A stretch of 56,707 bases of DNA from Patescibacteria group bacterium. Lineage in GTDB: Bacteria; Patescibacteriota; Microgenomatia; Levybacterales; UBA12049. A program made the position numbers and the translations under genes. Location: the NCBI GenBank assembly GCA_035510695.1, contig DATKGO010000062.1, positions 1-56,707 on the forward strand. The letters run 5' to 3'. This document shows, piece by piece, positions 16,672 to 52,921 of this stretch. A model generated the notes under the pieces. It was not told where the DNA came from, made no database searches, and saw only the letters and a program-made list of their open reading frames with translations. Each line of letters opens with the position of its first letter. Position 1 is the first letter of the stretch.

Positions 16672-18024
16672 TTAGGAACTCGGAACAGGAGTTAATGTAG
16701 GTGTATCAGACTGTGTTGGCGCGGTAGTAGGAGTATCGGTGGGGTTGGCAGTTGGCGTGGGAGTCGGTGTTGAACTTGAAGAATTTGATGAGCCGCTGAA
16801 AGTGACACTCGGATTATTATTATTCGTATCGGTAACTCCAAAATTACTCGTAGTATCCTGAACTGTAAAAGTATCTGTCCCGGCATTTTGCGAATTAATA
16901 CTAAATGTCGCTTGTCCATTTTGAGCTTGAATATTTACCGGCGAAGAAGAGCCATTGATGGTAAAGCTTGAGTCATTGGAAGTTTGAGTGATGGTAAGAT
17001 TTTCGCTGGAAGACACATTGTTTTTATTACAATCACGAATATCCACAGTAAACGTGACCGCTGAACCTGTGTTGGATGTAGCAGGAGATGCAGGATAAAC
17101 GTCTGAATAATAGGAATTGGCTGTGCCCGAACCTGTGGAGCAACTAGAATTTCCCGAGCTGCTGTTACTTGTGCCGCTAAAGGCTATACTCGGATTATTA
17201 TTATTAATATCGGTTACGGTAAATGATTTGGTTGTATCCTCCACTTTAAGTGTAACCGTTCCGCTGGCTTGGGATGTAACAGAAAAGCTGGCCTGACCGT
17301 TTGAAGTAGTAATGTTGTAGGGAAGATTATTTCCATTGATTTGTGTATTGGAATCACCCGAACTTAGAGAAATAGTTAAATTATCACTTACCGGCGCCGT
17401 ATTTTCATTACAGTCACGCAGTGTAACAGTTAAAGTTACCGAACCGTTACTCGCATTAATCGGAGGATTGGGATAAACATCGGAATACCAGGAATTGGCT
17501 ACGCCCGAGGCGGTAGTACAATTAGAGTTTCCCGAATTGTTGCTGGAAGTGTTGTCAGTATCTGTAACGGTTGTGTCAATGGTGGGTAGAGGAGCGTTTG
17601 TGGGTAAGGGAACAAGAGTCGGGACAGAGCTGGAATCGTCATATGAGTTGTTGTCGTCGGAACTTGAATTATCCGAAGTTCCCAAAACGTCAGTATCTGT
17701 AGGCGAAGGAAGTGTAATAGTTGGCTCCGAATTATCAGACGATGTGGAATTATACATGTCATCTCCGGAATTTTTAGAAGGTGATTTCATTTGAGACAGC
17801 GCATAACCTCTATACCACATGGCTAGGGTAATAAAAGCCACGAAAGAAATAAAGATTATTACTAAAATTTTATATTTAGTAACAAATGAAGTAAATTTTC
17901 TTAGCTGTTCTGAATTTAGATTGGGAATACGAGATTTTATCTGAGAAAGATGGGTTGAATCGAGGAGATTTGGAAGCTTGGGGAGTTTGGGTAATTTGAA
18001 ATTTTCCGGTAGTTTTAGTTTCAT
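16672..18024 (-). CDS. membrane-anchored surface protein with two tandem ~125-aa Ig-like repeats
   Basis: The first repeat reads C.T.SG.ANS.YSDVYP...T.T..RDCN.N...S.NLTI...F.V.D.T..F.VTD.NNNNPS..FSG.SNSS and is followed by a second copy. S/T/N-rich, with a PT-rich C-terminus. Confidence 0.7.
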   Translation of the reverse strand: MKLKLPENFKLPKLPKLPNLLDSTHLSQIKSRIPNLNSEQLRKFTSFVTKYKILVIIFISFVAFITLAMWYRGYALSQMKSPSKNSGDDMYNSTSSDNSEPTITLPSPTDTDVLGTSDNSSSDDNNSYDDSSSVPTLVPLPTNAPLPTIDTTVTDTDNTSSNNSGNSNCTTASGVANSWYSDVYPNPPINASNGSVTLTVTLRDCNENTAPVSDNLTISLSSGDSNTQINGNNLPYNITTSNGQASFSVTSQASGTVTLKVEDTTKSFTVTDINNNNPSIAFSGTSNSSSGNSSCSTGSGTANSYYSDVYPASPATSNTGSAVTFTVDIRDCNKNNVSSSENLTITQTSNDSSFTINGSSSPVNIQAQNGQATFSINSQNAGTDTFTVQDTTSNFGVTDTNNNNPSVTFSGSSNSSSSTPTPTPTANPTDTPTTAPTQSDTPTLTPVPSS

Positions 18025-18175
18025 GGTAAAATTATAGCACTAATAATTAAGAGAAAACTGAAAGGGAACAAAATTGTTATATTGTTGAATTGTTTTTTTG
18101 AGAGTTAGGAGCTGGGAGTTTTGGTTTTGAATGTGAATAATATTTTTTGCTAAAAATTATGCTACAATAATTTTA

Positions 18176-19444
18176 ATGTTAAAAAAATTACAATCATTAC
18201 CGAGAAAACTTTTCCGTTTCTGGCCATGGTTTTTGCATACCTCCTGGAAGAAAAAAATTCTCGTCATTATCGTTTTTTTTATAGTTTTGATTGTTCTGAA
18301 AAACATTTTTGTTCCGAGAAGCAAACAGCAATATACATTTGATACTGTAACAAAAGGGACAATTGATCAATTGGTTACAGAAAACGGCAGTGTCACAGCT
18401 TCCAATGAAACAGATGTCTATTCTCCTACTAATGGAGTTCTTGATCAGTTATTTGTCAAGAATGGTGATCAAGTAAATAGTGGTGCAAAGCTTTTTACTG
18501 TGAGAAGTACTGCAACTGCACAGGAACAGGCAGTCGCGTACTCGAATTATTTAGCGGCGCAAAGTTCGTTGAAAGCAGCTAATGCTACGTTATATAGTCT
18601 TCAGTCAGCGATGTACGCAAATTGGAAGACATATATGGATCTTTCGACAAATTCTACTTATCAAAATAGCGATGACAGTCCTAATACCACTAACAGAACG
18701 CTTCCGGCATTTACTACAGTGCAGGATAATTGGTTGAGTACAGAAGCACAATATCAGAATCAGCAGGCAGTCATCGCGCAATCACAGGCAGCGTTAAATA
18801 GTGCGTCTCTGGCATATCAGGCGACACAAAACGCGACAGTAACCGCACCTTCGAGTGGAGTAGTGGCAAATATTGTCGGTTTGGTAGGTTCCAAAGTGCA
18901 GGCAGAGACTTCCAGCTCTCAAGCCAATTCTACAACCGTTGTCATTACGCCGGTCATGATTATCGGAACCACCAATGGATCTTCAATACAAACTACAGTC
19001 AGCGAAGTGGATATCAATAAGGTCGCTTTGGGACAAACCTCGGATATAACATTTAGCGCAATTTCCGGAAAAACCTATAAGGGTCATATTATTCAAATGG
19101 ATAATTATGGTACGAATACTAATGGAGTAGTCGAATATAATATATATCTCCTCATTGATAATTCGGATAATCTGGTAAAACCCGGAATGTCAGCCAATTT
19201 GACGATAAATACGGCTCACAAAAGTAATGTCTTAACAGTCGCCAATGCCGCAATTATTCCATACCAAAATGGTAAGGCAGTACAAGCTGTAGGTAAGAAT
19301 GGTAAAGTCGTTTTCGTACCTGTTTTAGTGGGCTTGCGTGGATTTTCTCGAAGTGAGGTGCTGAAAGGAGTTAGCAGCGGCGAGAAAGTTATTTTAGGTA
19401 ATACACAGTTGACGAATAATCAATCCAGCGGTCCAGGAAACTAG
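18176..19444 (+). CDS. HlyD/MacA-type membrane-fusion (periplasmic adaptor) protein
   Basis: N-terminal TM, lipoyl-like GVLDQLFVKNGDQVNSGAKLF, coiled-coil Q/A-rich hairpin and C-terminal beta-barrel. Lies upstream of the MacB pair. Confidence 0.75.
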   Translation: MLKKLQSLPRKLFRFWPWFLHTSWKKKILVIIVFFIVLIVLKNIFVPRSKQQYTFDTVTKGTIDQLVTENGSVTASNETDVYSPTNGVLDQLFVKNGDQVNSGAKLFTVRSTATAQEQAVAYSNYLAAQSSLKAANATLYSLQSAMYANWKTYMDLSTNSTYQNSDDSPNTTNRTLPAFTTVQDNWLSTEAQYQNQQAVIAQSQAALNSASLAYQATQNATVTAPSSGVVANIVGLVGSKVQAETSSSQANSTTVVITPVMIIGTTNGSSIQTTVSEVDINKVALGQTSDITFSAISGKTYKGHIIQMDNYGTNTNGVVEYNIYLLIDNSDNLVKPGMSANLTINTAHKSNVLTVANAAIIPYQNGKAVQAVGKNGKVVFVPVLVGLRGFSRSEVLKGVSSGEKVILGNTQLTNNQSSGPGN

Positions 19445-19448
19445 ACGG

Positions 19449-19483
19449 GATTTACGATTTACGATTTACGAATAATGAATAAT
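19449..19483. repeat. heptamer tandem repeat (GATTTAC)x3 (GAATAAT)x2 running into the ATG at 19482
   Basis: Read directly from gatttacgatttacgatttacgaataatgaataatg. Confidence 0.8.
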
Positions 19484-20207
19484 GAAGATGATAAAGCAGC
19501 CTCTTATTGATTTCCAGAACATCCGGAAAGTATATAAAACCGGTGACAGCGAATATGAAGCACTCCACGATGTAACGGTCAGGATTGATAAAGAGGAGTT
19601 TGTGGCGATCATGGGACCATCGGGTTCGGGCAAGTCAACCACCATGCATATCATGGGTGCATTGGATACTCCCACTTCGGGGAAATATTTTCTCAATGGG
19701 ATGGATATTTCCAATTATACTGATGATCAATTGGCACATATTCGCAATCAGGAAATAGGTTTTGTTTTTCAATCTTTTAATTTACTTTCCCGAACATCGG
19801 TTATTAAAAACGTTGAACGACCGATGTCTTTCAGTAATACATTTCCACCGGAAAAGAGACGCGCTCGTGCCTTGGAAATGTTGAAATTAGTACATTTGGA
19901 AGATAAAGCGGAAAATTTATCCAATCAAATTTCCGGCGGACAAATTCAAAGGGTGGCAATTGCCAGAGCCTTAGTGATGAATCCATCATTGCTTTTGGCA
20001 GATGAACCGACAGGGAATTTGGATAGTAAAACATCACATGAAATTATGTCGTTTTTTCAAACGTTACATAAACAAGGTCATACGATAGTCGTGATTACAC
20101 ATGAACCGGATATTGCGGCTTATTCTGATAGAATTATTCAAGTTCGTGATGGAAGTATCATTTCCGATAAAAAAAATAATCAAAAAGTCAAAGGAGGAAG
20201 TGTATGA
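19482..20207 (+). CDS. ABC transporter ATP-binding protein, MacB/LolD type
   Basis: Walker A GPSGSGKST, signature ISGGQIQRVAIARAL, Walker B LLLADEPTGNLD. Confidence 0.9.
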   Translation: MKMIKQPLIDFQNIRKVYKTGDSEYEALHDVTVRIDKEEFVAIMGPSGSGKSTTMHIMGALDTPTSGKYFLNGMDISNYTDDQLAHIRNQEIGFVFQSFNLLSRTSVIKNVERPMSFSNTFPPEKRRARALEMLKLVHLEDKAENLSNQISGGQIQRVAIARALVMNPSLLLADEPTGNLDSKTSHEIMSFFQTLHKQGHTIVVITHEPDIAAYSDRIIQVRDGSIISDKKNNQKVKGGSV

Positions 20208-21388
20208 ATTATGGCGAAGTTTTCGTTACGGCTTTGCGTTCTTTGCGATCCAATATTTTACGTACGATCCTGACTATGCTCGGGATTATCATTGGGATTT
20301 TTGCAGTGACGCTGGTGTTAATTATCAGTCAAGGTGCAACTGCCGCGATTACATCTAAAATCTCAGCATTAGGGACGAATTTACTTTATATAATTTCAAC
20401 GAAAGAGATACCATTAAATCGTGATGACGCGCAGGCAATAGCACAGCAGGTTCCTGAAATAGGAGAAATAGCGGAAGAAGTAACTACGAATAAAACAATT
20501 TCCGCCAATGGACAAAGCAGCAGCGCGTCAATCGACGGAGTGACGCCTTCTTATGCGGATATGTTGTCTTTTAATACGCAATTTGGTAATTTTTTTACCG
20601 ATGACGATGTAACTTCCTACAGTACTGTGGCGGTATTGGGTCAGCAAGTTGTGACCGATCTTTATGGCACAGGAGCAAATCCCGTCGGACAATTAATCCA
20701 AATTGGAAATAGTTCATTTTATGTCGTAGGTGTATTGGCGGCGAAGGGAAGTTCAATTGCCGGTAACCCGGATAATTCGGTTTATATCCCCGTAACTACA
20801 GCGATGAATACGGTGGCCGGAACAAATACGCTTACAGATATTGAAGCTTATGTGAAAGATGATAATATGGTTGATGTGGCAGCGCTGGAAGTGAAACAAT
20901 TAATGATTGACCGGCATAGTGTGACTGATCCGAATGTGATTAAGAAATATGCGATTTTTACATCGAAAGATTTATTGGCGACAGTAGGTAGTATTACCGG
21001 TATTTTGAGTGGTGTTTTGGCCGGAATTGCGGCTATTTCTTTACTCGTAGGTGGAATTGGCATTATGAATATCATGTTAGTCACGGTGACTGAAAGAACT
21101 AGAGAAATCGGTCTATTAAAAGCGATCGGCGCGACGCAAAATAATATTTTAATTCAATTTCTTATTGAAGCAGTTGTGTTAACTGTGTCAGGTGGTTTGA
21201 TAGGGACTACTTTAGGTATCGGAGTAGGGTTTTTACTTTCCACTGTTTTGAAAGTGCCGTTTACTTTACCATATATGTCGATTTTGGCGGCTGTGATAGT
21301 GTCTATTTTTATCGGTTTGGTTTTTGGTATTTATCCGGCCCGGCGAGCGGCGAAAATGAATCCTATTGAAGCCCTAAGATACGAATAG
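20204..21388 (+). CDS. ABC transporter permease, MacB/FtsX-like
   Basis: MacB periplasmic domain plus FtsX-type 4-TM architecture (GIGIMNIMLVTVTERTREIGLLKAIGA). AGGAGG at 20192-20197. Start overlaps the upstream stop. Confidence 0.85.
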   Translation: MNYGEVFVTALRSLRSNILRTILTMLGIIIGIFAVTLVLIISQGATAAITSKISALGTNLLYIISTKEIPLNRDDAQAIAQQVPEIGEIAEEVTTNKTISANGQSSSASIDGVTPSYADMLSFNTQFGNFFTDDDVTSYSTVAVLGQQVVTDLYGTGANPVGQLIQIGNSSFYVVGVLAAKGSSIAGNPDNSVYIPVTTAMNTVAGTNTLTDIEAYVKDDNMVDVAALEVKQLMIDRHSVTDPNVIKKYAIFTSKDLLATVGSITGILSGVLAGIAAISLLVGGIGIMNIMLVTVTERTREIGLLKAIGATQNNILIQFLIEAVVLTVSGGLIGTTLGIGVGFLLSTVLKVPFTLPYMSILAAVIVSIFIGLVFGIYPARRAAKMNPIEALRYE

Positions 21389-21472
21389 ATTTGTTTAAGA
21401 CTGGTGCATCATGTTGGGGGATGGTTGTAGGAGATTACGTAAATAAACAAATAAAAGAATGAGAGAAAGATA

Positions 21473-21556
21473 GATTGCTTCGCTTCGCTCGCAATGACGT
21501 AAGACTGGATTCCCGATCAGAGCCTGTACTCGACCTGATCGGGGGTCGGGAATGAC
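21473..21556. repeat. GTCAT-hairpin composite (two units, both on the minus strand)
   Basis: Reverse complements are GTCATTGCGAGCGAAGCGAAGCAATC and GTCATTCCCGACCCCCGATCAGG...CTGATCGGGAATCC. Confidence 0.8.
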
Positions 21557-21665
21557 GGTGATTTACCATTTTCATTTTGCAATTAAACAAATTTTTGTGT
21601 TTGAAAATTAAATCATTAAAAATTGATTGAAAATTTTCCCTTACCTTCTGTGGTAAAATAATTCT

Positions 21666-22238
21666 GTGGTTATCTTTTATTCTCTCATAGGCTTAATTTG
21701 GCTTATTTATTTATTATATTGGTACGTTTTTTCACCGCGACCTAAATCAAGCGTCCACAATTACAATTGGCGAAAAGAAGCAGCTATTCGTATCGCATTT
21801 GTCATCCTAGTTATCGCATCGATTCGCATACCTGCGCTAAATCATTACTTCAGAAGTGTATATTTTCAAACCGCGTATTTTAATCCCATCATTGATAGCG
21901 TCGGTGTGCTTTTGTGCGCGGCCGGGATCACATTTGCCATTTGGGCTAGAGCGCATTTGGGCAGAAATTGGGGAATGCCGCGAACATTGCGGGAAAAGCC
22001 GGAATTGGTAACCACAGGTCCGTATGCTTATGTCCGGCATCCGATTTATAGCGGATTTATTTTGGCAGCGATCGGCACGGCATTAGTAAATGAGTTGTTT
22101 CTGCTGGTTTTTGTTTATGCTGTTATCTATTTTCTATATAGTGCTAGAATAGAGGAACACGACATGCTCCAGCTTTTTCCCAAAGAATATCCGGAATACC
22201 TTAGGCGAACCAAAGCTCTGATACCATTTATCTACTAG
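21666..22238 (+). CDS. isoprenylcysteine carboxyl methyltransferase (ICMT)/phospholipid methyltransferase family membrane protein
   Basis: TTGPYAYVRHPIYSGFILAAIG and the C-terminal EEHDMLQLFPKEYPEYLRRT. The GTG start is uncertain. Confidence 0.7.
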   Translation: MVIFYSLIGLIWLIYLLYWYVFSPRPKSSVHNYNWRKEAAIRIAFVILVIASIRIPALNHYFRSVYFQTAYFNPIIDSVGVLLCAAGITFAIWARAHLGRNWGMPRTLREKPELVTTGPYAYVRHPIYSGFILAAIGTALVNELFLLVFVYAVIYFLYSARIEEHDMLQLFPKEYPEYLRRTKALIPFIY

Positions 22239-22345
22239 AATTCTGTCGTGACTTTTACCTTTCATGTGTCAAAGACTGGTGAGAACTTCGGTAACAGCTT
22301 ATGGGTAGTTGAAGCGGTTTGGTAATTTTGTCATAATGAAACAGC

Positions 22346-22990
22346 ATGTCGTCTACTCGAGTTTCCAACTTAGCTGGTATTATTGCTCCGGTTGTTTTCA
22401 TCACACTTTTTACTATCGAAGGCTGGTTGCGGCTCGGATATAGTCCTATGAATATGTTTGTGAGCGAACTTTCACTCGGTTCATGGGGCTGGGTTCAGAT
22501 AGTAAACTTTCTTATCACCGGCAGCCTGATATTTATTTTCGGTCGTGGAGTGGCTAAGCAATTTCCAACCGGGAAGGCAGCCAAAGTCGGCTCGACATAT
22601 TTACAGATTATCGGTCTGAGCCTTATCGCATCAGGGCCATTTGTTACCGATCCTTCAGTCATGTTTAATCAAACTAGTATTCACGGAATTATTCATGGCA
22701 TCTTCGGGGCAGTAGTGTTTTTACTTATGCCTGTCACGTGTTTTGTCTTTTTTCGTAGTTTTCAGCGTGATCCATTATGGCGGGTGTTTGCATGGTGGAC
22801 ACTTGCCATTGGAGTGCTATTAGTCATCGGGATCGGTTTCTTGAAAGTAAGCCAATTTCCCCAGAGCAGTCTATTTGAGTGGAAAGGTTTAATTCAACGG
22901 ATAATTATTATATCGTATCTGGCATGGATATTCGCTTTTGCCGTACAACTAATTAAGTTGGGGCATTTAGGCAAACTCCGTGCGGTTTGA
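22346..22990 (+). CDS. DUF998 family membrane protein
   Basis: IEGWLRLGYSPMNMFVSELSLGSWGWVQIVNFLITG matches the DUF998 N-terminal pattern as recalled. Confidence 0.6.
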   Translation: MSSTRVSNLAGIIAPVVFITLFTIEGWLRLGYSPMNMFVSELSLGSWGWVQIVNFLITGSLIFIFGRGVAKQFPTGKAAKVGSTYLQIIGLSLIASGPFVTDPSVMFNQTSIHGIIHGIFGAVVFLLMPVTCFVFFRSFQRDPLWRVFAWWTLAIGVLLVIGIGFLKVSQFPQSSLFEWKGLIQRIIIISYLAWIFAFAVQLIKLGHLGKLRAV

Positions 22991-22991
22991 C

Positions 22992-23705
22992 TTATTTAGT
23001 CTTTGGCTGAATTACACCAAACCAGTCTTTAAAATCACTTAGTTCTCTCACTTTGAGCGAACCGGAAGGAGCTTGCAGGATGTGCTCGATTGTCTCGAAA
23101 TAGGCATCCATAATATCCTCAAATCGTTGAAAACTAGGCTGTTTCGGATTGGAAATTAGTAATTCGATAATAGTATCAGAGAGACTTAAAGCAATACCGG
23201 AGATAATTATCGCCACTTGCGCCGGGAATCGTGTTTTGAAAACCTTTTCTTTAATTCCTTGCCGAATAATAGATTCAAAGAAAGGGGAGACATATTTCAT
23301 TGATTCATTGTTCAATTTTTGACGGATGAATAAATTATCATCCGTATACCACATCCGCATTAAACTAATAATTAATTCCTTTTGTTGATTTTTCCAACTG
23401 GCTGAAGAGGTAATATAACTATGAAATTTCTGAATAGCAGACAAATTTTTGTCCTGTTCAATAGTAATAATATAGCGTTTTGCATTTTCTCCCATGCGAT
23501 CCACTAAAGCTTCAAGTATCTTTTCTTTGGAATAAAAATAATGATAAAGCGCGCCTTTGGAGATCTTCAGTCCATCAAGAATATCCTGAATCGTCATTTG
23601 GGTATAACCTTTGGTATAAATTAATTTTTGGGCAAAATCTAAAATTTCGTTGCGTTTGGCAGTAAATTCTTTTTGATTAACTATACGTGACATATTTTGT
23701 GGCAA
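22992..23705 (-). CDS. TetR/AcrR family transcriptional regulator
   Basis: N-terminal HTH TIQDILDGLKISKGALYHYFYSKEKIL. Confidence 0.8.
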   Translation of the reverse strand: MPQNMSRIVNQKEFTAKRNEILDFAQKLIYTKGYTQMTIQDILDGLKISKGALYHYFYSKEKILEALVDRMGENAKRYIITIEQDKNLSAIQKFHSYITSSASWKNQQKELIISLMRMWYTDDNLFIRQKLNNESMKYVSPFFESIIRQGIKEKVFKTRFPAQVAIIISGIALSLSDTIIELLISNPKQPSFQRFEDIMDAYFETIEHILQAPSGSLKVRELSDFKDWFGVIQPKTK

Positions 23706-23712
23706 ATTGATG

Positions 23713-24099
23713 TTAGAAAATTCCCGGAATCAGTCTCCAACGTACTTTCTTTTCATATTCAGCGTAGCCGGTTAAGTCATTTGCAAGCATTTTTTCCTCA
23801 TTTAATGCTCTAAGCGCGAAACCGAGAAAGAAGATTGGAACCAGAAACAAGCTCCACCATGTACCGAGCGCCAGCGGTGTACCCAAAATATAGATCAGCG
23901 CGCCGGCGTACATTGGATGTCGGATAATTGCGTAAGTACCAGTAGAAATGACTTTTTGGTTTTTTTCTACGTCTACATTCGATGCAGCGAAACTATTCTC
24001 GCGCGTAACCAGGTAGTAGATGTAAAGTCCGAGGAAAACCAATATCTCACCGAGAATGCTTATGTACCGGCACAGTAGACCAGCCGAATCTGTGATCAA
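23713..24099 (-). CDS. ICMT/phospholipid methyltransferase family protein, possibly frameshifted at its 5' end
   Basis: IIRHPMYAGALIYILG and EEKMLANDLTGYAEYEKKVRWRLIPGIF. Only a TTG start is in frame. An ATG at 24136 with a hydrophobic leader lies one frame off, across a G5 tract (24102-24106). Confidence 0.6.
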   Translation of the reverse strand: MITDSAGLLCRYISILGEILVFLGLYIYYLVTRENSFAASNVDVEKNQKVISTGTYAIIRHPMYAGALIYILGTPLALGTWWSLFLVPIFFLGFALRALNEEKMLANDLTGYAEYEKKVRWRLIPGIF

Positions 24100-24159
24100 G
24101 CGGGGGTAAAATAGTCAATGCCAGGATGAGAGGCATTCCCAATAATACAATTATTTTTT

Positions 24160-24725
24160 GCGTTCTCTCTTTTAACGGAGCAGAGAACGCCAGCCTTTTA
24201 AGGCTGGTGGTGAATGCAAACTCTATCGGAGCAAATCAAGTATTGATTTGCGGAGATAGAGATGTCATGATCTGTGCGTGACAGAGCATAAGACAGGATC
24301 AAGTACAAAACACAGATTACTTTTTCATTTAGTATTTTGTCCCAAGTACCGAAGGAGGGTACTTTTGGGGGATGTAAAGCGGAGACTGGGGGAATTATTC
24401 ACACAAGCATGTGAGATGAATGACTGGGAGATCCATGAATTAAATATCCAGAAGGATCATGTTCACATGTTGTTGCAAATAAATCCCAGAGAAAGTCTGT
24501 CTCATGTCATGCAACTACTCAAAGGAGGGATAAGCTATATCATCAGGAAAGAATATCCAGACTTGGAAGAATTTCTCTGGGGGGACTCTTTCTGGGGAGA
24601 TGGATTTTTTGCAGAATCGGTAGGGACAAAGAATGAAAAAGTAATCAGAGAGTATATAAAAAACCAAGACAAGCAGAGATCATGACGTAGGAGTAAAATC
24701 TCCGTCCTTTAGGACGGGGATTCCA
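24160..24725 (+). mobile_element. IS200-type element (Y1 HUH transposase only) with subterminal hairpins
   Basis: Left hairpins are GCGTTCTCT...AGAGAACGC (24160-24190) and CCAGCCT-TTTA-AGGCTGG (24190-24207). The right hairpin is CCGTCC-TTTA-GGACGG (24702-24717). No tnpB. Confidence 0.75.
24278..24685 (+). CDS. tnpA: IS200/IS605 family Y1 (HUH) transposase TnpA
   Basis: LLFHLVFCPKYRR, HUH motif DHVHMLL and catalytic Tyr context IREYIKNQ. 135 aa. Confidence 0.85.
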   Translation: MTEHKTGSSTKHRLLFHLVFCPKYRRRVLLGDVKRRLGELFTQACEMNDWEIHELNIQKDHVHMLLQINPRESLSHVMQLLKGGISYIIRKEYPDLEEFLWGDSFWGDGFFAESVGTKNEKVIREYIKNQDKQRS

Positions 24726-24905
24726 TTAATTATCATGCAGGGCAAATCCTAAATCTTTGCCGATAGTCTTAAGTATTATTTCTTTCTAAATACTTACTTC
24801 TTTCTAGTAGTGTTCTATTAAAAAAAATATAAGTTGAGCATAAAGGGGGTGAAATAAGGAAAAACTATTGACAATCTCTGCTATAATTGAGCATACTAAT
24901 AATGG

Positions 24906-25172
24906 ATGTCTAGAAGAATTGAAAAAACATCTACTGCCCAACCAACAAAAATTACTGTGAATGGTAATACTATAGTAGGTAGTACCTATGCCCAAGTTGT
25001 TGGTGTTTCAATTTCAGATAATGATGGAACATTGGAATTTGTATATGTTAATCCTCAGGTTAAATCAGAAGGTCATACTGTTGCTCGAATTACATTGCCG
25101 CGTAAATCCATAGAACAATTAGCAAAGATTATTCCAGATACAATTGAAAAATATGAGGAACAAAAAAAATAA
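24906..25172 (+). CDS. DUF3467-like small protein (tentative)
   Basis: TYAQVVGVSISDNDGTLEFVYVNP...VARITLPRKSIEQLAKIIPDTIEKYEE resembles the DUF3467 pattern as recalled. Confidence 0.4.
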   Translation: MSRRIEKTSTAQPTKITVNGNTIVGSTYAQVVGVSISDNDGTLEFVYVNPQVKSEGHTVARITLPRKSIEQLAKIIPDTIEKYEEQKK

Positions 25173-25176
25173 TAAT

Positions 25177-25395
25177 ATGTTCAATAAAGATTTTATTATT
25201 GTTAATAAGGAAGTCAGGAATGGAACCCCTGTATTTAAGGGAACGAGAGTTCCAGTATATTTTGTATTAGAACATATAGCTTTAGGCTGGTCTGTTAAAA
25301 AATTAAAAAAAATCTTTCCTACAGTTAAATCTGAGTATATTTCAGATTTAATTAATGATTTGGCGAAGGATTTTAAAGTACCTCATGTTGCATAG
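25177..25395 (+). CDS. DUF433 domain protein (antitoxin-like)
   Basis: VRNGTPVFKGTRVPVYFVLEHIALGWSVKKL is a typical DUF433 core. Start taken at ATG 25177. Confidence 0.6.
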   Translation: MFNKDFIIVNKEVRNGTPVFKGTRVPVYFVLEHIALGWSVKKLKKIFPTVKSEYISDLINDLAKDFKVPHVA

Positions 25396-25837
25396 ATACA
25401 AAAAGAGAGAACACTCTAAAATACCTCTTGGGAAAAAAGGGAAAATAGTTTGGGATGAAGGGGCTAATCCAGATTTAATTAAATATATTCATAAAACAGG
25501 ATGGGAAGTTAAGAGAGTACCGAAATCTTCAAGAAATATTAGTATGAAAGATCCGACTTTGGCTATGAAATATACAGACGGTAGATTGCCTCTATTCACA
25601 AATGATTATACGTCTTATTCAGAAGAACCTCTGGAAAAAGCAGCAGTTGGTTACGTTGAACAAGAGCCAATGCCAGCAGATACTAAAGAATATTCAAACT
25701 ATACGCAAAAGATTCAAAATTTTTTCTTTGATCATTACCCCAAGGATATTAGAGATAAAGTTTGGCATATACCAGTGGAATCAGAACCTTTCATAAAAGT
25801 TAAATCTCTAGATAAGGTTAGAAAAAAGAAAAAATAA
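25385..25837 (+). CDS. DUF5615/Mut7-C-like (PIN-like) protein, tentative partner of the DUF433 protein
   Basis: ATG at 25385 overlaps the DUF433 stop by 11 nt. WDEGANPDLIKYIHKTGWEVKRVP...LPLFTNDYTSY resembles the DUF5615 N-terminal layout. Confidence 0.35.
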   Translation: MLHRYKKREHSKIPLGKKGKIVWDEGANPDLIKYIHKTGWEVKRVPKSSRNISMKDPTLAMKYTDGRLPLFTNDYTSYSEEPLEKAAVGYVEQEPMPADTKEYSNYTQKIQNFFFDHYPKDIRDKVWHIPVESEPFIKVKSLDKVRKKKK

Positions 25838-25911
25838 TGCCAAATGTTAAATCCCACTTTCCATTTGGGTTATCTTCGCACCTCCTCTTTGTTTCGTTTC
25901 AGTAAGCTTCT

Positions 25912-25920
25912 TGCTATAAT
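25912..25920 (+). promoter_or_regulatory. fossil extended -10 promoter (TGcTATAAT) 6 nt upstream of a truncated duplicate ychF start
   Basis: TGCTATAATGCAGAT-ATGAATTTATCTGTAGGGAT. The reading frame stops after 14 codons. Confidence 0.5.
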
Positions 25921-25925
25921 GCAGA

Positions 25926-25946
25926 TATGAATTTATCTGTAGGGAT
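25926..25946 (+). repeat. 21-bp direct repeat, left copy (TATGAATTTATCTGTAGGGAT)
   Basis: Identical to 27989-28009, which contains the ychF start codon. Confidence 0.95.
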
Positions 25947-26124
25947 ACACAGTTCACTATCCCAACTTTAGAATTTAAGTTTTTCTTCACGCTTCCGCCT
26001 CCGAATAAAGCAAGAATCATAGCCGAGAGAGGGCAATGGGGAGAATTGCACATTCAATGCTTCCTTGAGCGTAATCACATAGCCTCAATAATATTTATTC
26101 ATAAAAGTCTATACTAAAGCGCAC

Positions 26125-26153
26125 TTGACATCCATAAAAGTATATACTATAAT
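26125..26153 (+). promoter_or_regulatory. consensus promoter TTGACA-17-TATAAT upstream of the ATPase gene
   Basis: -35 at 26125-26130 and -10 at 26148-26153. The ATG at 26164 is 10 nt downstream. Confidence 0.65.
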
Positions 26154-26163
26154 GTGTCGTATA

Positions 26164-27336
26164 ATGATAATTAGGCATCTAGACCAGGCTTTGACCAGCC
26201 ATTTTTCCAAATATAAAGAAGTTTTGATTTTACTTGGTGCAAGACAGGTAGGAAAAACAACGATTCTTAAAAGGATTTTTTCTGATGCGCAGTATTTGAC
26301 CGTTGATAACGAGCCTATAAAAAATGCGCTAGAAAGATATGATCCCGCAACTTATAAACAATTATTAAATTCAAATGGTGGCATCGTAGTAATCGATGAG
26401 ATTCAGAACTTAAAGGATCCGGGGAGAGCTGCTAAAATATTTTATGACCAACTTTCTGAATACAAACTTATCATTACTGGTTCATCAGCATTTAATATTA
26501 AAAATAAATCTTCGGAAAGCCTTGCTGGTCGCAAGATAGACTATCATCTTTATCCGTTAACACTTAGTGAATACTTGGTGCAAAACGGTCTAGAAAGTAA
26601 TCTGTCATTTCAACCAATAGAGAATTTACTTAATGGAGTAAGTGTTAAAGAAATATTTAAGCAATATGATCATAACTCACTCCTGAATAATATCTTAATA
26701 TATGGCTTGTATCCTGCCATGCAATCTCATCCAAGTGATGCAACGTATTTGACCAATTTGATTGATAGTGTGGTGTTTAAAGACTTAGTTGAATTGTCGC
26801 TTTTAGAAAATAAATCTGCAGCGTTATCATTACTAAAACTATTAGCATATCAGATTGGTTCTCTGGTTAATTATGCCGAGTTAGCTTCAAAATTAAATAT
26901 TGGAGAAAAGACAGTTAAAAGATATATAGAACTTTTTGAACAAAGTTTTATTATTTTTAAATTAAAGCCTTTTACGTCCCGAAAAAGAGACGAAATAGCG
27001 AAAATGCCCAAAATTTATTTTTACGATGTAGGACTTAGAAATGCATTAATAAATAATTTCGAACCAGTCGATAATAGAGGAGACGGCGGACAATTATTTG
27101 AAAATTTCATTATAAGTGAATTATTAAAGTATAATTATTATGGCAATTTTGGTTATAATTTGAATTTTTGGAGAACCAAAAGCGGTTCGGAAGTAGATCT
27201 GGTTTTAAATAAAACCAATAGTGATGTTATCGCTGTCGAGATAAAGAGTAAATCGCAGAGAGTCAACAAGGCATTTTTGTCTCGTTATCCAAAATCAAAA
27301 TTGGTTGTTATATCTAAGGATAACTATTGGGTATAA
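26164..27336 (+). CDS. AAA+ ATPase with C-terminal DUF4143 domain
   Basis: Walker A GARQVGKTT and Walker B VVVIDEIQ. Winged-helix-like middle region and a C-terminal RTKSGSEVDLV block typical of DUF4143 ATPases. Confidence 0.8.
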   Translation: MIIRHLDQALTSHFSKYKEVLILLGARQVGKTTILKRIFSDAQYLTVDNEPIKNALERYDPATYKQLLNSNGGIVVIDEIQNLKDPGRAAKIFYDQLSEYKLIITGSSAFNIKNKSSESLAGRKIDYHLYPLTLSEYLVQNGLESNLSFQPIENLLNGVSVKEIFKQYDHNSLLNNILIYGLYPAMQSHPSDATYLTNLIDSVVFKDLVELSLLENKSAALSLLKLLAYQIGSLVNYAELASKLNIGEKTVKRYIELFEQSFIIFKLKPFTSRKRDEIAKMPKIYFYDVGLRNALINNFEPVDNRGDGGQLFENFIISELLKYNYYGNFGYNLNFWRTKSGSEVDLVLNKTNSDVIAVEIKSKSQRVNKAFLSRYPKSKLVVISKDNYWV

Positions 27337-27355
27337 GGATGGGTGGGGTGAGTCT

Positions 27356-27820
27356 ATGCAGTTAATAAAAATGAAAGTAACTAACAAGAGAGAAAAAGCT
27401 AACTATAAAGTGCTTGAGGTCTCCGCAGACATTACTTTGTATAAATTTGCAGAGATCATTGTAAAGAGGTTTGGTTTCTACTTTGATCATTCATTTGGTT
27501 TTTATGATAATTTAGAGGATCATTTTAAATCAAAGGAAATTTATGAATTGTTTACAGATTTAGATGATGTCGAACATACTCCAGGAGCAAAAGGAGTTCG
27601 AAAATATTATTTTGTGAGTGATTTATTTAAAAATAGGAAGAAAATGTTATTTTTGTTCGATTATGGTGACACTTGGGAATTTATACTTGAAGTACTTGAT
27701 GACTCTCAGCGAGTACAGGATGTCCCCAAGAATTATTACAAGTTATATGAGTCTCACGGTGAAGACCCAGAACAATATCCCGATATTGAAGATGAAGTAG
27801 AGGAGAAGTTTATTAATTAA
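27356..27820 (+). CDS. plasmid pRiA4b ORF-3-like (PRiA4_ORF3) family protein
   Basis: VSADITLYKFAEIIVKRFGF...HSFGF and FLFDYGDTWEF follow the family pattern (ADITL...H.F...YDFGD.WEH). GGTGGGGTGAG SD-like tract upstream. Confidence 0.65.
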   Translation: MQLIKMKVTNKREKANYKVLEVSADITLYKFAEIIVKRFGFYFDHSFGFYDNLEDHFKSKEIYELFTDLDDVEHTPGAKGVRKYYFVSDLFKNRKKMLFLFDYGDTWEFILEVLDDSQRVQDVPKNYYKLYESHGEDPEQYPDIEDEVEEKFIN

Positions 27821-27940
27821 AAAATAGAGAGCACTTGTTTATGTTTCAAATAAGCTATAGAGTTTCTCAGGTATAAGAATGTTCATTTCCGGTGGTTGGA
27901 TAATGTAGATTTGAGTGGATAATTATAATCGGATTTTTTG

Positions 27941-27949
27941 TGCTAAAAT
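27941..27949 (+). promoter_or_regulatory. candidate extended -10 (TGcTAAAAT) now serving ychF with a ~40-nt SD-bearing leader
   Basis: TGCTAAAAT at 27941-27949 and GGTGGAAGG at 27973-27981, ahead of ATG 27990. Confidence 0.35.
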
Positions 27950-27988
27950 GTTGAGGTATAGCTTTGAGTACGGTGGAAGGTTTTAATG

Positions 27989-28009
27989 TATGAATTTATC
28001 TGTAGGGAT
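27989..28009 (+). repeat. 21-bp direct repeat, right copy (covers the ychF ATG)
   Basis: Identical to 25926-25946. Confidence 0.95.
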
Positions 28010-29186
28010 TGTCGGTCTACCAAACGTAGGTAAAAGTACGTTATTTAATGCCTTGTTGAAAAAGCAGCTGGCGCTGGCGGCGAATTATCCTTTCGCTACG
28101 ATTGAACCAAATGTCGGAATTGTGCCGGTACCGGATGGAAGGCTTGAGGTTTTGGCAAAGATTGTTGCAGGAGAAGAGGCGGATCCTGCCGCTCGCTCTT
28201 CCCAAGGTGCTCCTGCTAGTCTTGCTGACGCTGCGAACGCAGATGCGCGCCTTGAGAGCCCTTCGCTCGCGTCACCCGCTAACCTTCCGCCGATTAAGCC
28301 GGCGACTGTTGAATTCCTTGATATTGCCGGACTGGTAAAAGGCGCGGCAGAAGGAGCAGGTTTAGGTAATAGATTTCTCTCCCATATCCGTGAAGTGTCG
28401 GTAGTTTGTCATGTCGTCCGCGCGTTTATCGATGAAAATATCATCAGGGAAGGCAGCAGTGACCCGGAAAATGATTTTGCGACCATTGAGACGGAATTGA
28501 TGTTGGCGGATTTGCAATCGGCGATGAATATCCAATCGCGCATCAAACGTTCAGATGATCCGGTGCAAAAAATGGCAATTGATAAAGTAGTTGATAATTT
28601 AAATAGCGGAATTCCGGTTCGCGAAATGCGATTTAGCGAAGAGGAAAACGAATATTTAAAAACGCTTTTCTTCCTGACGGCCAAACAGGAATTGGTGGTT
28701 TTAAATGTCAGTGATGATGAATATACAGCGAAAAATGCTGATTCATTAGTTGAAAAATATGCCGATATGTTACAGATTTCCAGAGAAAGATTAGTGGTGA
28801 TTAGTGCAAAAATTGAAGAAGAGCTGGCGCAATTGTCAGACGAAGAACAAAGTCAATATTTAGCCGATTTGGGTTTTAAGACTTCCGGTTTGGAACGACT
28901 TATTCAAAAAGCTTACAGCAGTTTGGGATTAATTTCTTTTCTTACAGCCGGGGAGAAGGAAGTGCGTGCTTGGACCATTCGAAAAGGTTCCACAGCTGTG
29001 GAAGCTTCAGGCGAGATCCATACCGATTTTATGAAAAAGTTTATAAAAGCGGAAGTAGTTTTCTTTGCCGATTTTGTAAAATTTGGCGGCTGGAAAGGGA
29101 GCAGAGAAAAGGGAAAGGCGAGATTGGAAGGGAAAGATTATATCATGCAGGACGGCGACGTCGTCGAGTTTAAGATCGGCGCATAA
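27990..29186 (+). CDS. ychF: redox-regulated ATPase YchF (Obg-like GTPase family) carrying a ~39-aa insertion
   Basis: GIVGLPNVGKSTLFNAL, FPFATIEPNVG, EFLDIAGLVKGA and a C-terminal TGS-like domain (FIKAEV...). Length is 398 aa versus roughly 363 aa for E. coli YchF as recalled. Confidence 0.9.
   Translation: MNLSVGIVGLPNVGKSTLFNALLKKQLALAANYPFATIEPNVGIVPVPDGRLEVLAKIVAGEEADPAARSSQGAPASLADAANADARLESPSLASPANLPPIKPATVEFLDIAGLVKGAAEGAGLGNRFLSHIREVSVVCHVVRAFIDENIIREGSSDPENDFATIETELMLADLQSAMNIQSRIKRSDDPVQKMAIDKVVDNLNSGIPVREMRFSEEENEYLKTLFFLTAKQELVVLNVSDDEYTAKNADSLVEKYADMLQISRERLVVISAKIEEELAQLSDEEQSQYLADLGFKTSGLERLIQKAYSSLGLISFLTAGEKEVRAWTIRKGSTAVEASGEIHTDFMKKFIKAEVVFFADFVKFGGWKGSREKGKARLEGKDYIMQDGDVVEFKIGA
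28167..28283 (+). repeat. GC-rich in-frame insert in ychF, probably degenerate GTCAT-family units
   Basis: Encodes AGEEADPAARSSQGAPASLADAANADARLESPSLASPAN. Contains CTTCGCTCGC (also present in the units at 21473 and 47002) and the CTGCGAACGCAG hairpin. Confidence 0.5.
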
Positions 29187-29230
29187 GCGAGCTTTTACAG
29201 GTTGCGATATATTGAGTGACAGATGATGTT

Positions 29231-29854
29231 TTATCTTTTGTTTTCTAAAAGTGTTACGAGCTTTTCTCTGGGGGTTCTTCTTCCTTCTTTGAAATATTTA
29301 TTTACATCATCTAAATTGAAATAGTATTGGCCTTTAGCACCTTTTTTAGTTGGCACTTGTTTTTTATATGCTGCAATTCTAAGCGCTAATTTTTCTGCAG
29401 CAGTTAAATCGAGACTGGAAAGGGGTATAAGTTCATCATTTACTTCATTCGGGATATCAGAATACAGTTTAATTGATTTTGGAGGTGTAACTGTATCTAG
29501 CCTTAAGGCTTGATTTGTAATTTCATCATCATCTAAAATTTCAAATATTCTTTTATAAAGTATTGTAGGAGTTATTGAAGGCCCTAAAGCCTGAGCCAAT
29601 ATAAAAAGATCTTCTGCACTATGGCTCCAGATAGAGAACGTTACCATATTATCGAAATCTGTCTGTTTAAGATTAGGAGCCGTACCATCTCTTTGTAAAG
29701 CTTGGAATCTTCTAAGAGGATCTGTCAGTCTTTGAAAGATTTCAGGAGTAACGGATCCCTTTATGGAATTCAGTCTTGTATAGAAGCTCACGACAGGATC
29801 AACCTGGTGTTCGGTTGGTAGAGGGATTTTTCTTTCTATCGATTGTAGAGCCAT
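29231..29854 (-). CDS. hypothetical protein
   Basis: 207-aa ORF with no recognisable motif. Confidence 0.5.
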   Translation of the reverse strand: MALQSIERKIPLPTEHQVDPVVSFYTRLNSIKGSVTPEIFQRLTDPLRRFQALQRDGTAPNLKQTDFDNMVTFSIWSHSAEDLFILAQALGPSITPTILYKRIFEILDDDEITNQALRLDTVTPPKSIKLYSDIPNEVNDELIPLSSLDLTAAEKLALRIAAYKKQVPTKKGAKGQYYFNLDDVNKYFKEGRRTPREKLVTLLENKR

Positions 29855-29910
29855 AGTCTTGTATTATATTATATATAAGCTCATCAGTAAATCGGGAAAT
29901 CTTTTCCTAC

Positions 29911-29939
29911 TTGTCAGTATGCATGATTTTCGCTACAAT
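29911..29939 (+). promoter_or_regulatory. promoter TTGTCA-17-TACAAT for rpsF-ssb-rpsR
   Basis: -35 at 29911-29916 and -10 at 29934-29939. ATG 13 nt downstream. Confidence 0.55.
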
Positions 29940-29952
29940 ATAAGCCACAGTT

Positions 29953-30228
29953 ATGCGAATATACGAATTAGCATTAGTTTTACGTACCAAATTGTCAGAC
30001 AAAGACCGGAAAAAAGTAGTGGATACGCTTAAAGAGTGGTTAAAAGACATGAAGGTAACCAAAGAAGAAGAATTTGGCCAAAAGCCGCTTGCGTATCCGA
30101 TTAAGAAAGAAGCAGCCGGATATTATTTGACATTACATTTGGAAGGTGAGACTATACCGGTAGATGTTGAGAGACGAATTTTGCAAACAGATGAAGTCTT
30201 GAGACATTTGTTAATCAGAACGAAGTGA
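29953..30228 (+). CDS. rpsF: 30S ribosomal protein S6
   Basis: MRIYELALVLRTKLSD...GYYLTLHLEG. Conserved rpsF-ssb-rpsR order. Confidence 0.85.
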   Translation: MRIYELALVLRTKLSDKDRKKVVDTLKEWLKDMKVTKEEEFGQKPLAYPIKKEAAGYYLTLHLEGETIPVDVERRILQTDEVLRHLLIRTK

Positions 30229-30236
30229 CATGCAAT

Positions 30237-30301
30237 GTCATCCTGAACTTGATTCAGGATCCAGAAAATTAAAAAAGATTCCGGATCAAGTCCGGAATGA
30301 C
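30237..30301. repeat. GTCAT-hairpin doublet (REPIN/MITE-like) between rpsF and ssb
   Basis: GTCATCCTGAACTTGATTCAGGATCC, a spacer, then GATTCCGGATCAAGTCCGGAATGAC. Confidence 0.85.
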
Positions 30302-52256: not shown

Positions 52257-52541
52257 ATGAATACGATTAGATTGTCAGCAACTTCTGCTAGAAATAATTT
52301 TTTTAATGTACTTAATCAAGTTGCAGCAGGTACGCAAGTCATTATTGAAAAAGACAATAAAGAAATTGCCATGCTCATTCCCAAAACAACCAAAACCGAT
52401 TGGAAAGGTTTGCGAAAAGCATTAAATGCCACTAGAGGCATTCTGAAAGATTATGATCCGGAAGATAATCCTTTGAGGAGAAAAGGCGCGTCTGAATATT
52501 TAGGAAAATGGGATAAAGGTTTACTTTTGAATGATAAATGA
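52257..52541 (+). CDS. type II antitoxin, Phd/YefM-like
   Basis: LSATSARNNFFNVLNQVAAGTQVIIEKDNKEIAMLIP. Stop overlaps the VapC start. Confidence 0.75.
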   Translation: MNTIRLSATSARNNFFNVLNQVAAGTQVIIEKDNKEIAMLIPKTTKTDWKGLRKALNATRGILKDYDPEDNPLRRKGASEYLGKWDKGLLLNDK

Positions 52542-52921
52542 AACTCATTGTTGACACCAGTATTCTCATTGATAATTTGCGAGGAGGAAAAATTTTCGCT
52601 ACAATTCTCGATGATTTAGAGCGCGAAAATGCGGAATTGATAGTACCCACAATTGTTTTTTTTGAACTATTCTCGGGGAGAAGTACGAGAGCACCGGAAA
52701 TTATTAAAGAAATCAACATGCTAATGAAAAATTTTCAAAGGGTTGATCTCACCGAGAGGATCGCGAAACGTGCTGGAGAATTATATAGGGATATAAATAA
52801 AGATCTTGGAGCTGCAGATTATGTGATTTCCGCTTCGGCTTTAGAACTAAATGCCACGGTAGTTACACTTAATAAAAAGCACTTTGAACAAATTACGAAC
52901 CTTAATGTATATCCGTTGTAG
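52538..52921 (+). CDS. vapC: type II toxin, PIN-domain VapC
   Basis: MKLIVDTSILID...AADYVISASALELNATVVTLNKKHF. Confidence 0.85.
   Translation: MKLIVDTSILIDNLRGGKIFATILDDLERENAELIVPTIVFFELFSGRSTRAPEIIKEINMLMKNFQRVDLTERIAKRAGELYRDINKDLGAADYVISASALELNATVVTLNKKHFEQITNLNVYPL

Follow-up and report, generated by a model that had tools for sequence, protein, structure and literature searches.

Large-serine-recombinase elements and prophages insert inside genes, as Listeria phage A118 does in comK and SPbeta in spsM. SXT/R391 is an integrative and conjugative element of about 100 kb with a tyrosine integrase, and it integrates in the 5' end of prfC. Archaeal viruses of the SSV1 type, with tyrosine recombinases and tRNA targets, have their attP within the integrase gene and split that gene when they integrate; integration that changes the C-terminus of the integrase has been described mainly for these enzymes. 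The locus described here lies in a 56,707-bp metagenomic contig of a Levybacterales bacterium (DATKGO010000062.1; ‘the window’ denotes this whole stretch). A two-gene cassette (25947-27988), encoding an AAA+ ATPase-nuclease and a PRiA4_ORF3 protein, separates the promoter and first codons of ychF from the working gene. The cassette is one decayed member of a recurrent, undescribed pattern of cassettes at the ychF start in Microgenomates, and this pattern belongs with the site-specific integrative elements that restore their target gene. We regard it as rather probable, though far from assured, that the segment is foreign DNA which site-specific recombination placed in the first codons of ychF, as a serine-integrase element, since decayed, at a recurrent site.

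The resemblance to SXT in prfC lies in the target, the 5' end of an essential, translation-related gene of the GTPase family, in the supply of a new promoter and 5' region, and in the old 5' end left behind as a relic. Unlike SXT, however, the ychF insert is 2 kb long, carries no mobility genes, resides in a host of the candidate phyla radiation (CPR) and apparently goes back to a serine-type recombinase. With the large-serine-recombinase elements it shares site-specific insertion in conserved coding sequence, a short core in hybrid attL and attR sites, and the lack of inverted termini and transposase. It differs from them in several respects: the window insert holds relics of a C-terminal tail but no recombinase gene, the target is a 5' end and the gene remains functional instead of being split, the 21-bp core is unusually long, the attachment site apparently lies inside the 3' end of the recombinase gene, and decayed cassettes pile into arrays.

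The 21-mer TATGAATTTATCTGTAGGGAT occurs exactly twice in the window, at 25926-25946 and 27989-28009, both times on the + strand. No third site appears in the window even with up to 3 mismatches, and 100 dinucleotide shuffles gave 0 matches, so that the perfect direct repeats reported in an earlier note on this DNA stand, with two matches where none is expected. Identity ends at either edge of the repeat (a/g on the 5' side, a/t on the 3' side), and the segment between the copies measures 2,042 bp. Without the insert (25925 joined to 27989..28010) the sequence would read TGCTATAATGCAGA-TATGAATTTATCTGTAGGGAT-TGTCGG. The features of the locus are the following.

25912 to 25929, + strand: displaced native leaderless promoter and start codon of ychF, TGCTATAAT (25912-25920), 6 nt, ATG (25927)
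25926 to 25946, + strand: left 21-bp direct repeat (putative attL core), ychF codons 1-7, ending in GGGAT
25927 to 25971, + strand: dead ychF frame of 14 codons, translation MNLSVGIHSSLSQL, stop at 25969-25971
25930 to 26055, + strand: left-end sequence (LE), nhmmer E=7e-25, single copy in the window
26100 to 26163, + strand: ATPase promoter module, TTGACA (26125-26130), 17 nt, TATAAT (26148-26153), 12/12 consensus
26164 to 27336, + strand: gene for an AAA+ ATPase (AAA_14) with a DUF4143 PD-(D/E)XK nuclease domain, PADLOC candidate PDC-S01 (by Pfam and PADLOC)
27356 to 27820, + strand: PRiA4_ORF3 (MM3350-like) gene, starting 19 nt past the ATPase stop codon (by Pfam)
27821 to 27988, + strand: right arm of the insert, the replacement upstream region of ychF, with TGCTAAAAT (27941-27949) and the Shine-Dalgarno (SD)-like GGTGGAAGG (27972-27980)
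27989 to 28009, + strand: right 21-bp direct repeat (putative attR core), containing the working ychF start codon
27990 to 29186, + strand: intact ychF, 398 aa, TIGR00092 391.9 bits against a cut-off of 279.2, 3e-117

Between the repeats neither a recombinase nor a transposase gene was found, in agreement with the earlier statement that no integrase lies there; terminal inverted repeats and insertion sequence (IS) ends were looked for at the insert and are absent. A structured-RNA or tRNA target was ruled out, since Rfam gave no credible match within 25000-28500 (the best was the snoRNA family DdR8, E=0.47, with 23 bits where the gathering score is 80) and the window contains no tRNA. Likewise, a dif/Xer-like reading of ATGTTAAAAT was dropped when the matching second arm was not found. 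The GC content of the insert is 0.327, as against 0.449 in ychF and 0.374 in the whole window. On the 3' side of ychF, the synteny with rpsF-ssb-rpsR agrees with that of relatives.

Two repeats in a metagenome-assembled contig might reflect a chimeric join at a short repeated sequence. A second assembly of the locus by another assembler (Logan, SRR8676592), possibly from the same reads, is nevertheless 100% identical over 12,275 bp (window 17990-30264), across both repeats. Because the repeat, at only 21 bp, is shorter than assembly k-mers and the second assembly is identical, a mis-join is unlikely; the same architecture moreover occurs in many unrelated assemblies, and the probability of an artefact is in our estimate vanishingly small.

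About 200 loci were fetched and are labelled here by L-numbers. Over 18 CPR loci the usual ychF start consists of an extended -10 box, 6 bases and the start codon (TGnTAnAAT-N6-ATG), the box being TGATACAAT, TGATATAAT, TGCTATAAT or TGGTAAAAT. This geometry stands before an intact ychF in L003-L011, L014 and L040, and the uninterrupted arrangement for which the earlier note had proposed to search in relatives is thus found across CPR genomes. The nearest YchF proteins among one-per-species genomes come from Candidatus Levyibacteriota (L002, 66% identical; L003, 59%), and both of these ychF loci are without a cassette. In the window the geometry is kept by the upstream copy only, where sequence and translation bear out the -10 box, the N6 spacing and a reading frame that dies after 14 codons. 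The ychF start of L004 is the identical 22-mer, TATGAATTTATCTGTAGGGATA, to the left-repeat region, and the roughly 60 nt to the left of the upstream copy are orthologous to the ychF promoter flank of the Levyibacteriota contig L015. Because the native geometry is kept there and the flank is orthologous to that of L015, the upstream copy represents the native promoter and start of ychF displaced by the insert, as had been proposed. In the other filled sites L015 and L193 the native geometry is likewise confined to the left copy. The right copy in filled sites has gained a different leader, such as one with an AAAGGAG SD sequence in L013; in the window this comprises the TGCTAAAAT and GGTGGAAGG elements, which lie before the working ychF as first described. 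The claim that many window genes use this leaderless geometry found no statistical support at the exact N6 spacing, with 9 sites against 6.0 +/- 2.2 expected.

Filled sites share more than the repeat. Directly 3' of the left repeat, profile searching brought out a conserved stretch of ~110-170 nt, the LE. It was first seen as 5 repeats in L082, a contig with a close ATPase homologue 4.6 kb upstream of ychF, and a profile built from these copies was then searched against the fetched loci. LE is present in 10 independent locus groups (the window, the L082 group, L095/098, L086, L104, L013, L014, L015, L189 and L193). Every copy lies on the ychF strand, directly 3' of a ychF-start relic ending in GGGAY, from the Gly-Ile codons with which the P-loop strand begins; ychF itself follows 0.7-5 kb downstream in 8 of the 10 groups and lies past the fetched sequence in the other 2. 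The insertion reading of the earlier note is supported in its main lines, while the conserved LE at the left end, which is the best mechanistic clue, had been overlooked there.

A junction after GGGAY of the ychF start was observed in at least 10 independent loci. The presence of a junction at this very point of ychF in many other genomes favours site-specific integration over transposase target duplication, the preference expressed before on the length of the repeat. The locus is also unlike an IS or transposon with a target duplication in having no terminal inverted repeats and no transposase inside the repeats, and in that the duplicated stretch varies in position and length, running from ATG to GGGAT in the window and L015 versus promoter to ATG in L082 and L189. 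The IS200 family makes no target duplication, and the IS200 TnpA gene nearby lies outside the repeats.

Between LE and ychF the cargo comprises the ATPase, CorA, a HAD hydrolase, an EEP nuclease, an S51 peptidase and proteins of unknown function. In the L082 group, 5-6 LE copies stand at cassette boundaries, and arrays reach up to six co-oriented cassettes, each bounded by a relic and an LE. The LE copies within one array are mostly nearer to the LEs of other genomes than to one another, and sister genomes with identical ATPase diverge upstream of the LE 3' end and carry different LEs before the ATPase gene. These comparisons speak for independent acquisition of the copies. The window and L015 have a common promoter flank, yet different LE types and cargo. 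The window LE has its closest relative (62%) in the copy before the L082 ATPase, and therefore an LE-ATPase unit is shared between lineages. In L084, compared with its sister L082, the ychF start is joined to an LE and >8 kb of other genes where others have an intact ychF; this difference, the sole polymorphism seen and one between assemblies, could also be an assembly join. Neither LE nor the long LE-bearing open reading frames (ORFs) described below were found in viral contigs, phages or plasmids, and we found nothing in the literature searched that describes cassette accumulation at the ychF start.

Some LE copies show local peculiarities. Those of L095 (7192-7354) and L098 (5396-5558) contain a palindromic insert of 31 nt (CTGCAGAGCTGGATCTGGCTCTGCCAG) that separates the ‘PTF’ from the ‘DFYFK’ codons, and the small ORFs P0316, P0330 and P0356 have another insert of ~9 codons at the same spot, which may be a secondary insertion hot spot. 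In L101 the ATPase is flanked by imperfect direct repeats of ~45 nt, ATGAGTTTATCTGTTGGGATAGTTCGTATCAGACTCAAC and ATGGGCTTAACTGTAGGGATAGTTCGTACCAGACTCAAT (1400-1570 and 2745-2830). Each is a dead ychF start in which the break falls one codon further on than at LE junctions, followed by sequence that the LE profile does not match; they may be a second type of element end.

LE appears coding-like because variation at its third codon positions exceeds that at the first two (column entropy 1.30 versus 1.0 bits). The profile of its translation retrieved 77 clusters by word search and 265 protein clusters by a full HMMER scan. Nearly all of these proteins are 40-90 aa long, and the named ones come from Patescibacteria. 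The small LE ORFs begin in the -10 box (ATG-TTA-AAA-TAC, the codon reading of TGnTAAAAT) and pass in the +2 frame across the ychF-start relic and on through LE; in the window the frame of the LE pseudo-ORF extends to a stop at about 26115-26117. A known small-gene family was rejected as an explanation, as no Pfam, NCBIfam, PHROG or PDB match was obtained. The AlphaFold2 (AF2) model of the LE translation (mean predicted local distance difference test score, pLDDT, 71) has one confident beta-hairpin, and its Foldseek hits were meaningless.

In five clusters, LE forms the C-terminus of ORFs of 126-196 aa with a common upstream region, ...IKDIIDKVII.ER..VEV.GHLPL....KLGY. This region has no Pfam match. 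Compared with the whole PDB, it best matches the very C-terminal end of the large serine integrase of Listeria phage A118, EKQLYLKSLINKIYIDGEQV (E=0.013), and one of the five long-ORF clusters matches the XisF serine recombinase model over positions 375-464 of 465, i.e. the last 90 (E=0.085). The two matches come from two libraries and concern the same region of one enzyme class, and the ORF ending in LE thereby resembles, weakly, the C-termini of A118 integrase and XisF. In L094 a 37-residue tail remnant (E=2.5e-7) lies between the ATPase stop codon and ychF, and homology stops exactly at the ychF-start GGGAAT. Three junction types were hence seen, namely start to LE (attL-like; the window and others), tail to ychF (attR-like; L094), and tail to LE (attP-like or a tandem joint; the long ORFs). 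A ‘HLPL’ sequence 5' of ychF in L189 was considered as a further recombinase tail and rejected, as it belongs to the EEP nuclease gene, whose C-terminal SDHxP motif it represents.

The arrays invite comparison with integrons, which they resemble in their tandem, mostly co-oriented single-gene cassettes, each with one conserved boundary, behind a fixed promoter at a single site in the chromosome. It might then be supposed that LE and the start mimic make up an attC-like cassette site, and that a chromosomal recombinase acting in trans inserts circular cassettes at the ychF start, as at attI, under the strong ychF promoter. Several features would fit such integron-like capture: the arrays of up to six co-oriented cassettes bounded by relic and LE, the diversity of the cargo, the lack of a recombinase within 10 kb of any array, the shuffling of LEs among sister genomes and the active-looking promoter that the left copy retains before the cargo. 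Despite RYYYAAC/GTTRRRY-like words noticed by eye in LE, the attC-like hairpin was rejected, since single-stranded DNA folds of five LE copies were no stabler than shuffles (z -0.5 to +1.4). LE is instead coding-like and extends upstream into a recombinase-like ORF (five clusters, and L094), which speaks for an element-borne gene rather than a bare site. The platform, a housekeeping gene start, has no IntI or other adjoining integrase, and no Phage_integrase match was obtained in the 10-kb flanks of the arrays. We consider integron-like capture unlikely, if still worth bearing in mind.

A decayed serine-integrase element would account for these observations as follows. At its right end, each element would carry a recombinase gene reading towards ychF, most likely for a large serine recombinase, and the last ~70 codons of this gene would span an attachment site that is a mimic of the ychF promoter and start over about 45 bp. 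Integration would fuse the host promoter and start to the orphaned tail of ~55 codons, seen as LE, on the left, while the start copy of the element would land before the ychF body on the right and keep ychF intact; in the window, ychF would now be served by the element-borne leader (TGCTAAAAT and the SD-like GGTGGAAGG). As in SSV1, the recombinase ORF would span the attachment site, with the tail left at attL and the body at attR, but unlike SSV1 only a short C-terminal tail would be cut off, in bacteria and in a protein-coding target, and we infer the split from relics. The recombinase body would since have been lost from the window, which would make the cassette a fixed relic, because no catalytic motif was found and the 168-nt right arm is without a homologue. 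Of all this, the data show the insertion itself, the displacement of the promoter, the recurring junction, LE with its protein family and the repeated occurrence of the gene pair, while the recombinase class, the split of its gene and the function of the cargo are inferred.

Several observations weigh against this reading. The matches to serine recombinases are weak (E=0.013 and 0.085) and lie over coiled-coil-rich sequence. No recombinase gene or serine-recombinase catalytic motif was found in the window or in the about 200 fetched loci, and neither a full-length LE-tailed recombinase nor an intact element was recovered. The right arm (27821-27988) has by blastn no homologue in any fetched locus, and a recombinase-tail remnant looked for in it is absent. 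The shifting duplicated stretch is not predicted by a single fixed crossover, unless attP and attB share about 45 bp, and the identical core of 21 bp exceeds the cores of well-studied serine integrases. The comparison set holds no conspecific empty site, the nearest YchF being 66% identical. The ATPase often abuts ychF without an LE on either side (L094, L106, L090, L144) and may have its own reason for being at this site. Finally, the defence role of PDC-S01 is a prediction (PMC12988326), and PRiA4 has no PADLOC or PHROG match.

The ATPase encoded in the window matches AAA_14 (1.4e-29) and DUF4143 (1.1e-42) in Pfam, and the PADLOC model PDLC04789 (PDC-S01) over its full length (residues 1-389, 1.4e-110). 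The consensus promoter and the PRiA4_ORF3 assignment of the next gene given in the earlier note were also borne out. Its view that the pair is not a named system holds for PRiA4, which no PADLOC or PHROG model matched, but not for the ATPase, which on its own is already listed as candidate PDC-S01. DUF4143 has been classed as PD-(D/E)XK (PMC3424549), and PDC-S01, of the same domain architecture as the window protein, is an AAA_14 ATPase fused to a DUF4143 PD-(D/E)XK nuclease, reported to rank fourth in frequency among the predicted defence genes of prokaryotes, with validation pending (PMC12988326). Invariant in 30 homologues are G25-T33 (Walker A, GARQVGKTT), D78-E79 (Walker B, VVIDEIQ), D345, E359 and K361 (EVD...VEIK); the D...ExK nuclease motif is also retained in the L181 ATPase, which is 32% identical. 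No homologue was found in the PDB by sequence. The AF2 model has low confidence (pLDDT 52.8), with the C-terminal order alpha-beta-beta-beta-alpha-beta, and a structure search with it was dropped because the model was too poor. In L086/L103 (Woesebacteria), L135, L136 and L162, three or four divergent AAA_14/DUF4143 ATPase genes with 24-36% mutual identity stand in a row.

The promoter module (26100-26163) is the left edge of the homology common to all ATPase loci, and the homology unit consists of promoter and coding sequence, about 1.27 kb. This subfamily of PDC-S01 is unusually conserved, its members being 80-87% identical between lineages in which YchF is 48-62% identical. Recent horizontal transfer was at first suspected from such values (80% for the ATPase versus 50-60% for YchF) and was withdrawn, as third-position identity is only ~50% (codon-position identity about 85/92/50%), near saturation. 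The GC content of the ATPase genes stays at 0.32-0.37 in hosts with a flank GC of 0.31-0.49. Together, these sequence comparisons indicate that the ATPase lineages are old and strongly constrained and have also been moved around, their GC content being decoupled from that of the host.

The age of the lineages raises the question of a purely vertical history, in which a single ancient insertion or duplication in the ancestor of Microgenomates was followed by LE duplication, gene turnover and gene conversion of the 21-mers, with no dedicated machinery. The near-saturated synonymous sites of the ATPase would agree with this, as would the loose tracking of YchF identity by ATPase identity among the closest pairs, and a ychF start conserved enough for L004 to have the same 22-mer. 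On the other hand, L002, L003 and most CPR ychF loci are empty, array LEs are nearer to those of other genomes than to one another, the window and L015 combine the same promoter flank with different LE types and cargo, and the ATPase keeps its GC content despite the range of its host flanks. Drift, moreover, would hardly keep a perfect 21/21 repeat beside a decayed LE. A vertical rearrangement of this kind seems to us quite improbable.

The second gene of the window cassette matches PRiA4_ORF3 (PF07929) over residues 17-122 with E=5.2e-9 (36.5 bits against a cut-off of 26.6) and probably forms an operon with the ATPase gene. In at least four other CPR contexts, an AAA_14/DUF4143 ATPase gene is directly followed by a PRiA4 homologue of 69-80% identity (L180, L181-185, L186-188 and, as a truncated copy, L102), in contrast to the definition of PDC-S01 as a single gene. 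The ATPases preceding PRiA4 fall in two subfamilies, only 32% identical to each other, and between L181 and L186 the two genes were transferred together (80% nucleotide identity). The linkage elsewhere that the earlier note had wished to see checked is accordingly real but partial, as most close ATPase homologues are without PRiA4; one widespread PRiA4 lineage follows AbiEii with no ATPase. Comparison of L181 (4549-5993) with L195 (4967-4993) shows the 420-aa DUF4143 ATPase, 32% identical to that of the window, as an indel of ~1.45 kb exactly between AbiEii and the PRiA4 start codon.

The family is known from mobile DNA. The ‘TnpR’ of IS1096 is a PRiA4_ORF3 passenger, and proteobacterial plasmid homologues of PRiA4 adjoin transposases, including those of IS66. 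PRiA4_ORF3 passenger genes have also been described in the ISAzba1 group of p-MULT elements (PMC3942029). The CPR proteins share the Pfam family with these passengers but are coupled to a DUF4143 ATPase or to AbiEii, not to a transposase. ATPase and PRiA4 thus make up a recurrent but facultative module, whose neighbours (AbiE, toxin-antitoxin-like genes, IS elements) suggest a role in defence or conflict. Within the cargo, the ATPase may sense or load on nucleic acid and the nuclease may cut, with PRiA4 as an accessory, most plausibly in defence or genetic conflict.

The position of the ATPase led to a further possibility, that the ATPase-nuclease is itself the agent of mobility, cutting near the ychF 5' end in the manner of a homing enzyme or transposase, with LE incidental. 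Its stop codon lies 2-90 nt from the ychF start or relic in at least eight lineages (L082, L086, L094, L095/098, L101, L104, L106, L144), the homology unit is just promoter and coding sequence, the other subfamily forms an indel directly before the PRiA4 start codon, and the PD-(D/E)XK motif is intact. Yet LE cassettes occur at ychF without a nearby ATPase (L189, L193), many close ATPase copies are located away from ychF (L095-L102, L110-L116), and the ATPase module has neither terminal repeats nor a constant target duplication. AAA_14/DUF4143 proteins form a very abundant family that figures among the defence candidates, and we know of no precedent for their acting in transposition. We hold such a role to be very improbable.

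The neighbourhood of the cassette is itself variable. A low-GC tract (0.29-0.35, compared with 0.374 for the whole window) spans 24750-28000; it runs past the left repeat, and the variable island therefore exceeds the repeat-bounded segment. The tract contains DUF3467 (24906-25172), DUF433 (25144-25395; 7.6e-13) and a 160-aa ORF (25355-25837), and a solitary IS200/IS605 TnpA gene (24278-24685; Y1_Tnp 8e-40, NF033573 1.8e-40) lies 1.2 kb left of the cassette. Of the neighbours named earlier, IS200 and DUF433 were recovered, whereas the 160-aa ORF, taken for PIN-like, had no Pfam, NCBIfam, PADLOC or PHROG match. The window YchF (398 aa) has an Ala/Pro/Ser-rich insert of ~35 aa (AGEEADPAARSSQGAPASLADAANADARLESPSLASPANLPP; 28165-28290) which its relatives are without (L002 YchF, 367 aa). 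The insert sits in a GC-rich stretch (0.51), and MMR_HSR1 covers residues 5-153 for only 85 model positions. Between ychF and rpsF, a 207-aa ORF on the - strand (29231-29854) has no Pfam, NCBIfam or PHROG match; at its position L002 has a gap of ~0.5 kb and L082 a 64-aa ORF, and it may be a small insertion 3' of ychF. Near the right window end, three short ORFs (52538-52921, + strand; 53168-53590, - strand; 55035-55415, - strand) have, judged by eye, PIN/VapC-like N-termini (MKLIVDTSILID, MISAVLDTNTL and MYLLDTDVLIW), which suggest a toxin-antitoxin cluster.

Taken further, the data allow a tentative and broader proposal, which we hold with less than even confidence, of an undescribed family of integrative elements in Microgenomates (CPR). 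In it, the serine recombinase gene would span its own ychF-mimicking site, each integration would displace the old start and LE and provide a new start, integration and decay in repeated rounds would build integron-like arrays whose cassettes are expressed from the ychF promoter, and the strongly conserved ATPase and its PRiA4 partner would be a new defence or conflict module, or even, in view of the frequent contact of the ATPase gene with the ychF start, a recombination helper. Should a serine integrase gene indeed span attP, the ~50-bp ychF 5' site and the tail-spanning site would be a directly testable pair, and integration would alter the enzyme's own C-terminus. The PRiA4_ORF3 partner and the conserved PDC-S01 subfamily offer a defined pair for cloning. 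The instance in the window, decayed and immobile, has its value as an entry point to the wider pattern, in which a hot spot marked by a recognisable signature of ~120 nt (265 protein clusters) gathers cassettes of varied function. The genomes of CPR/Patescibacteria are tiny and their gain of genes is little understood; a hot spot of fixed position, where a universal gene begins, would give them a concrete route of gene flow.

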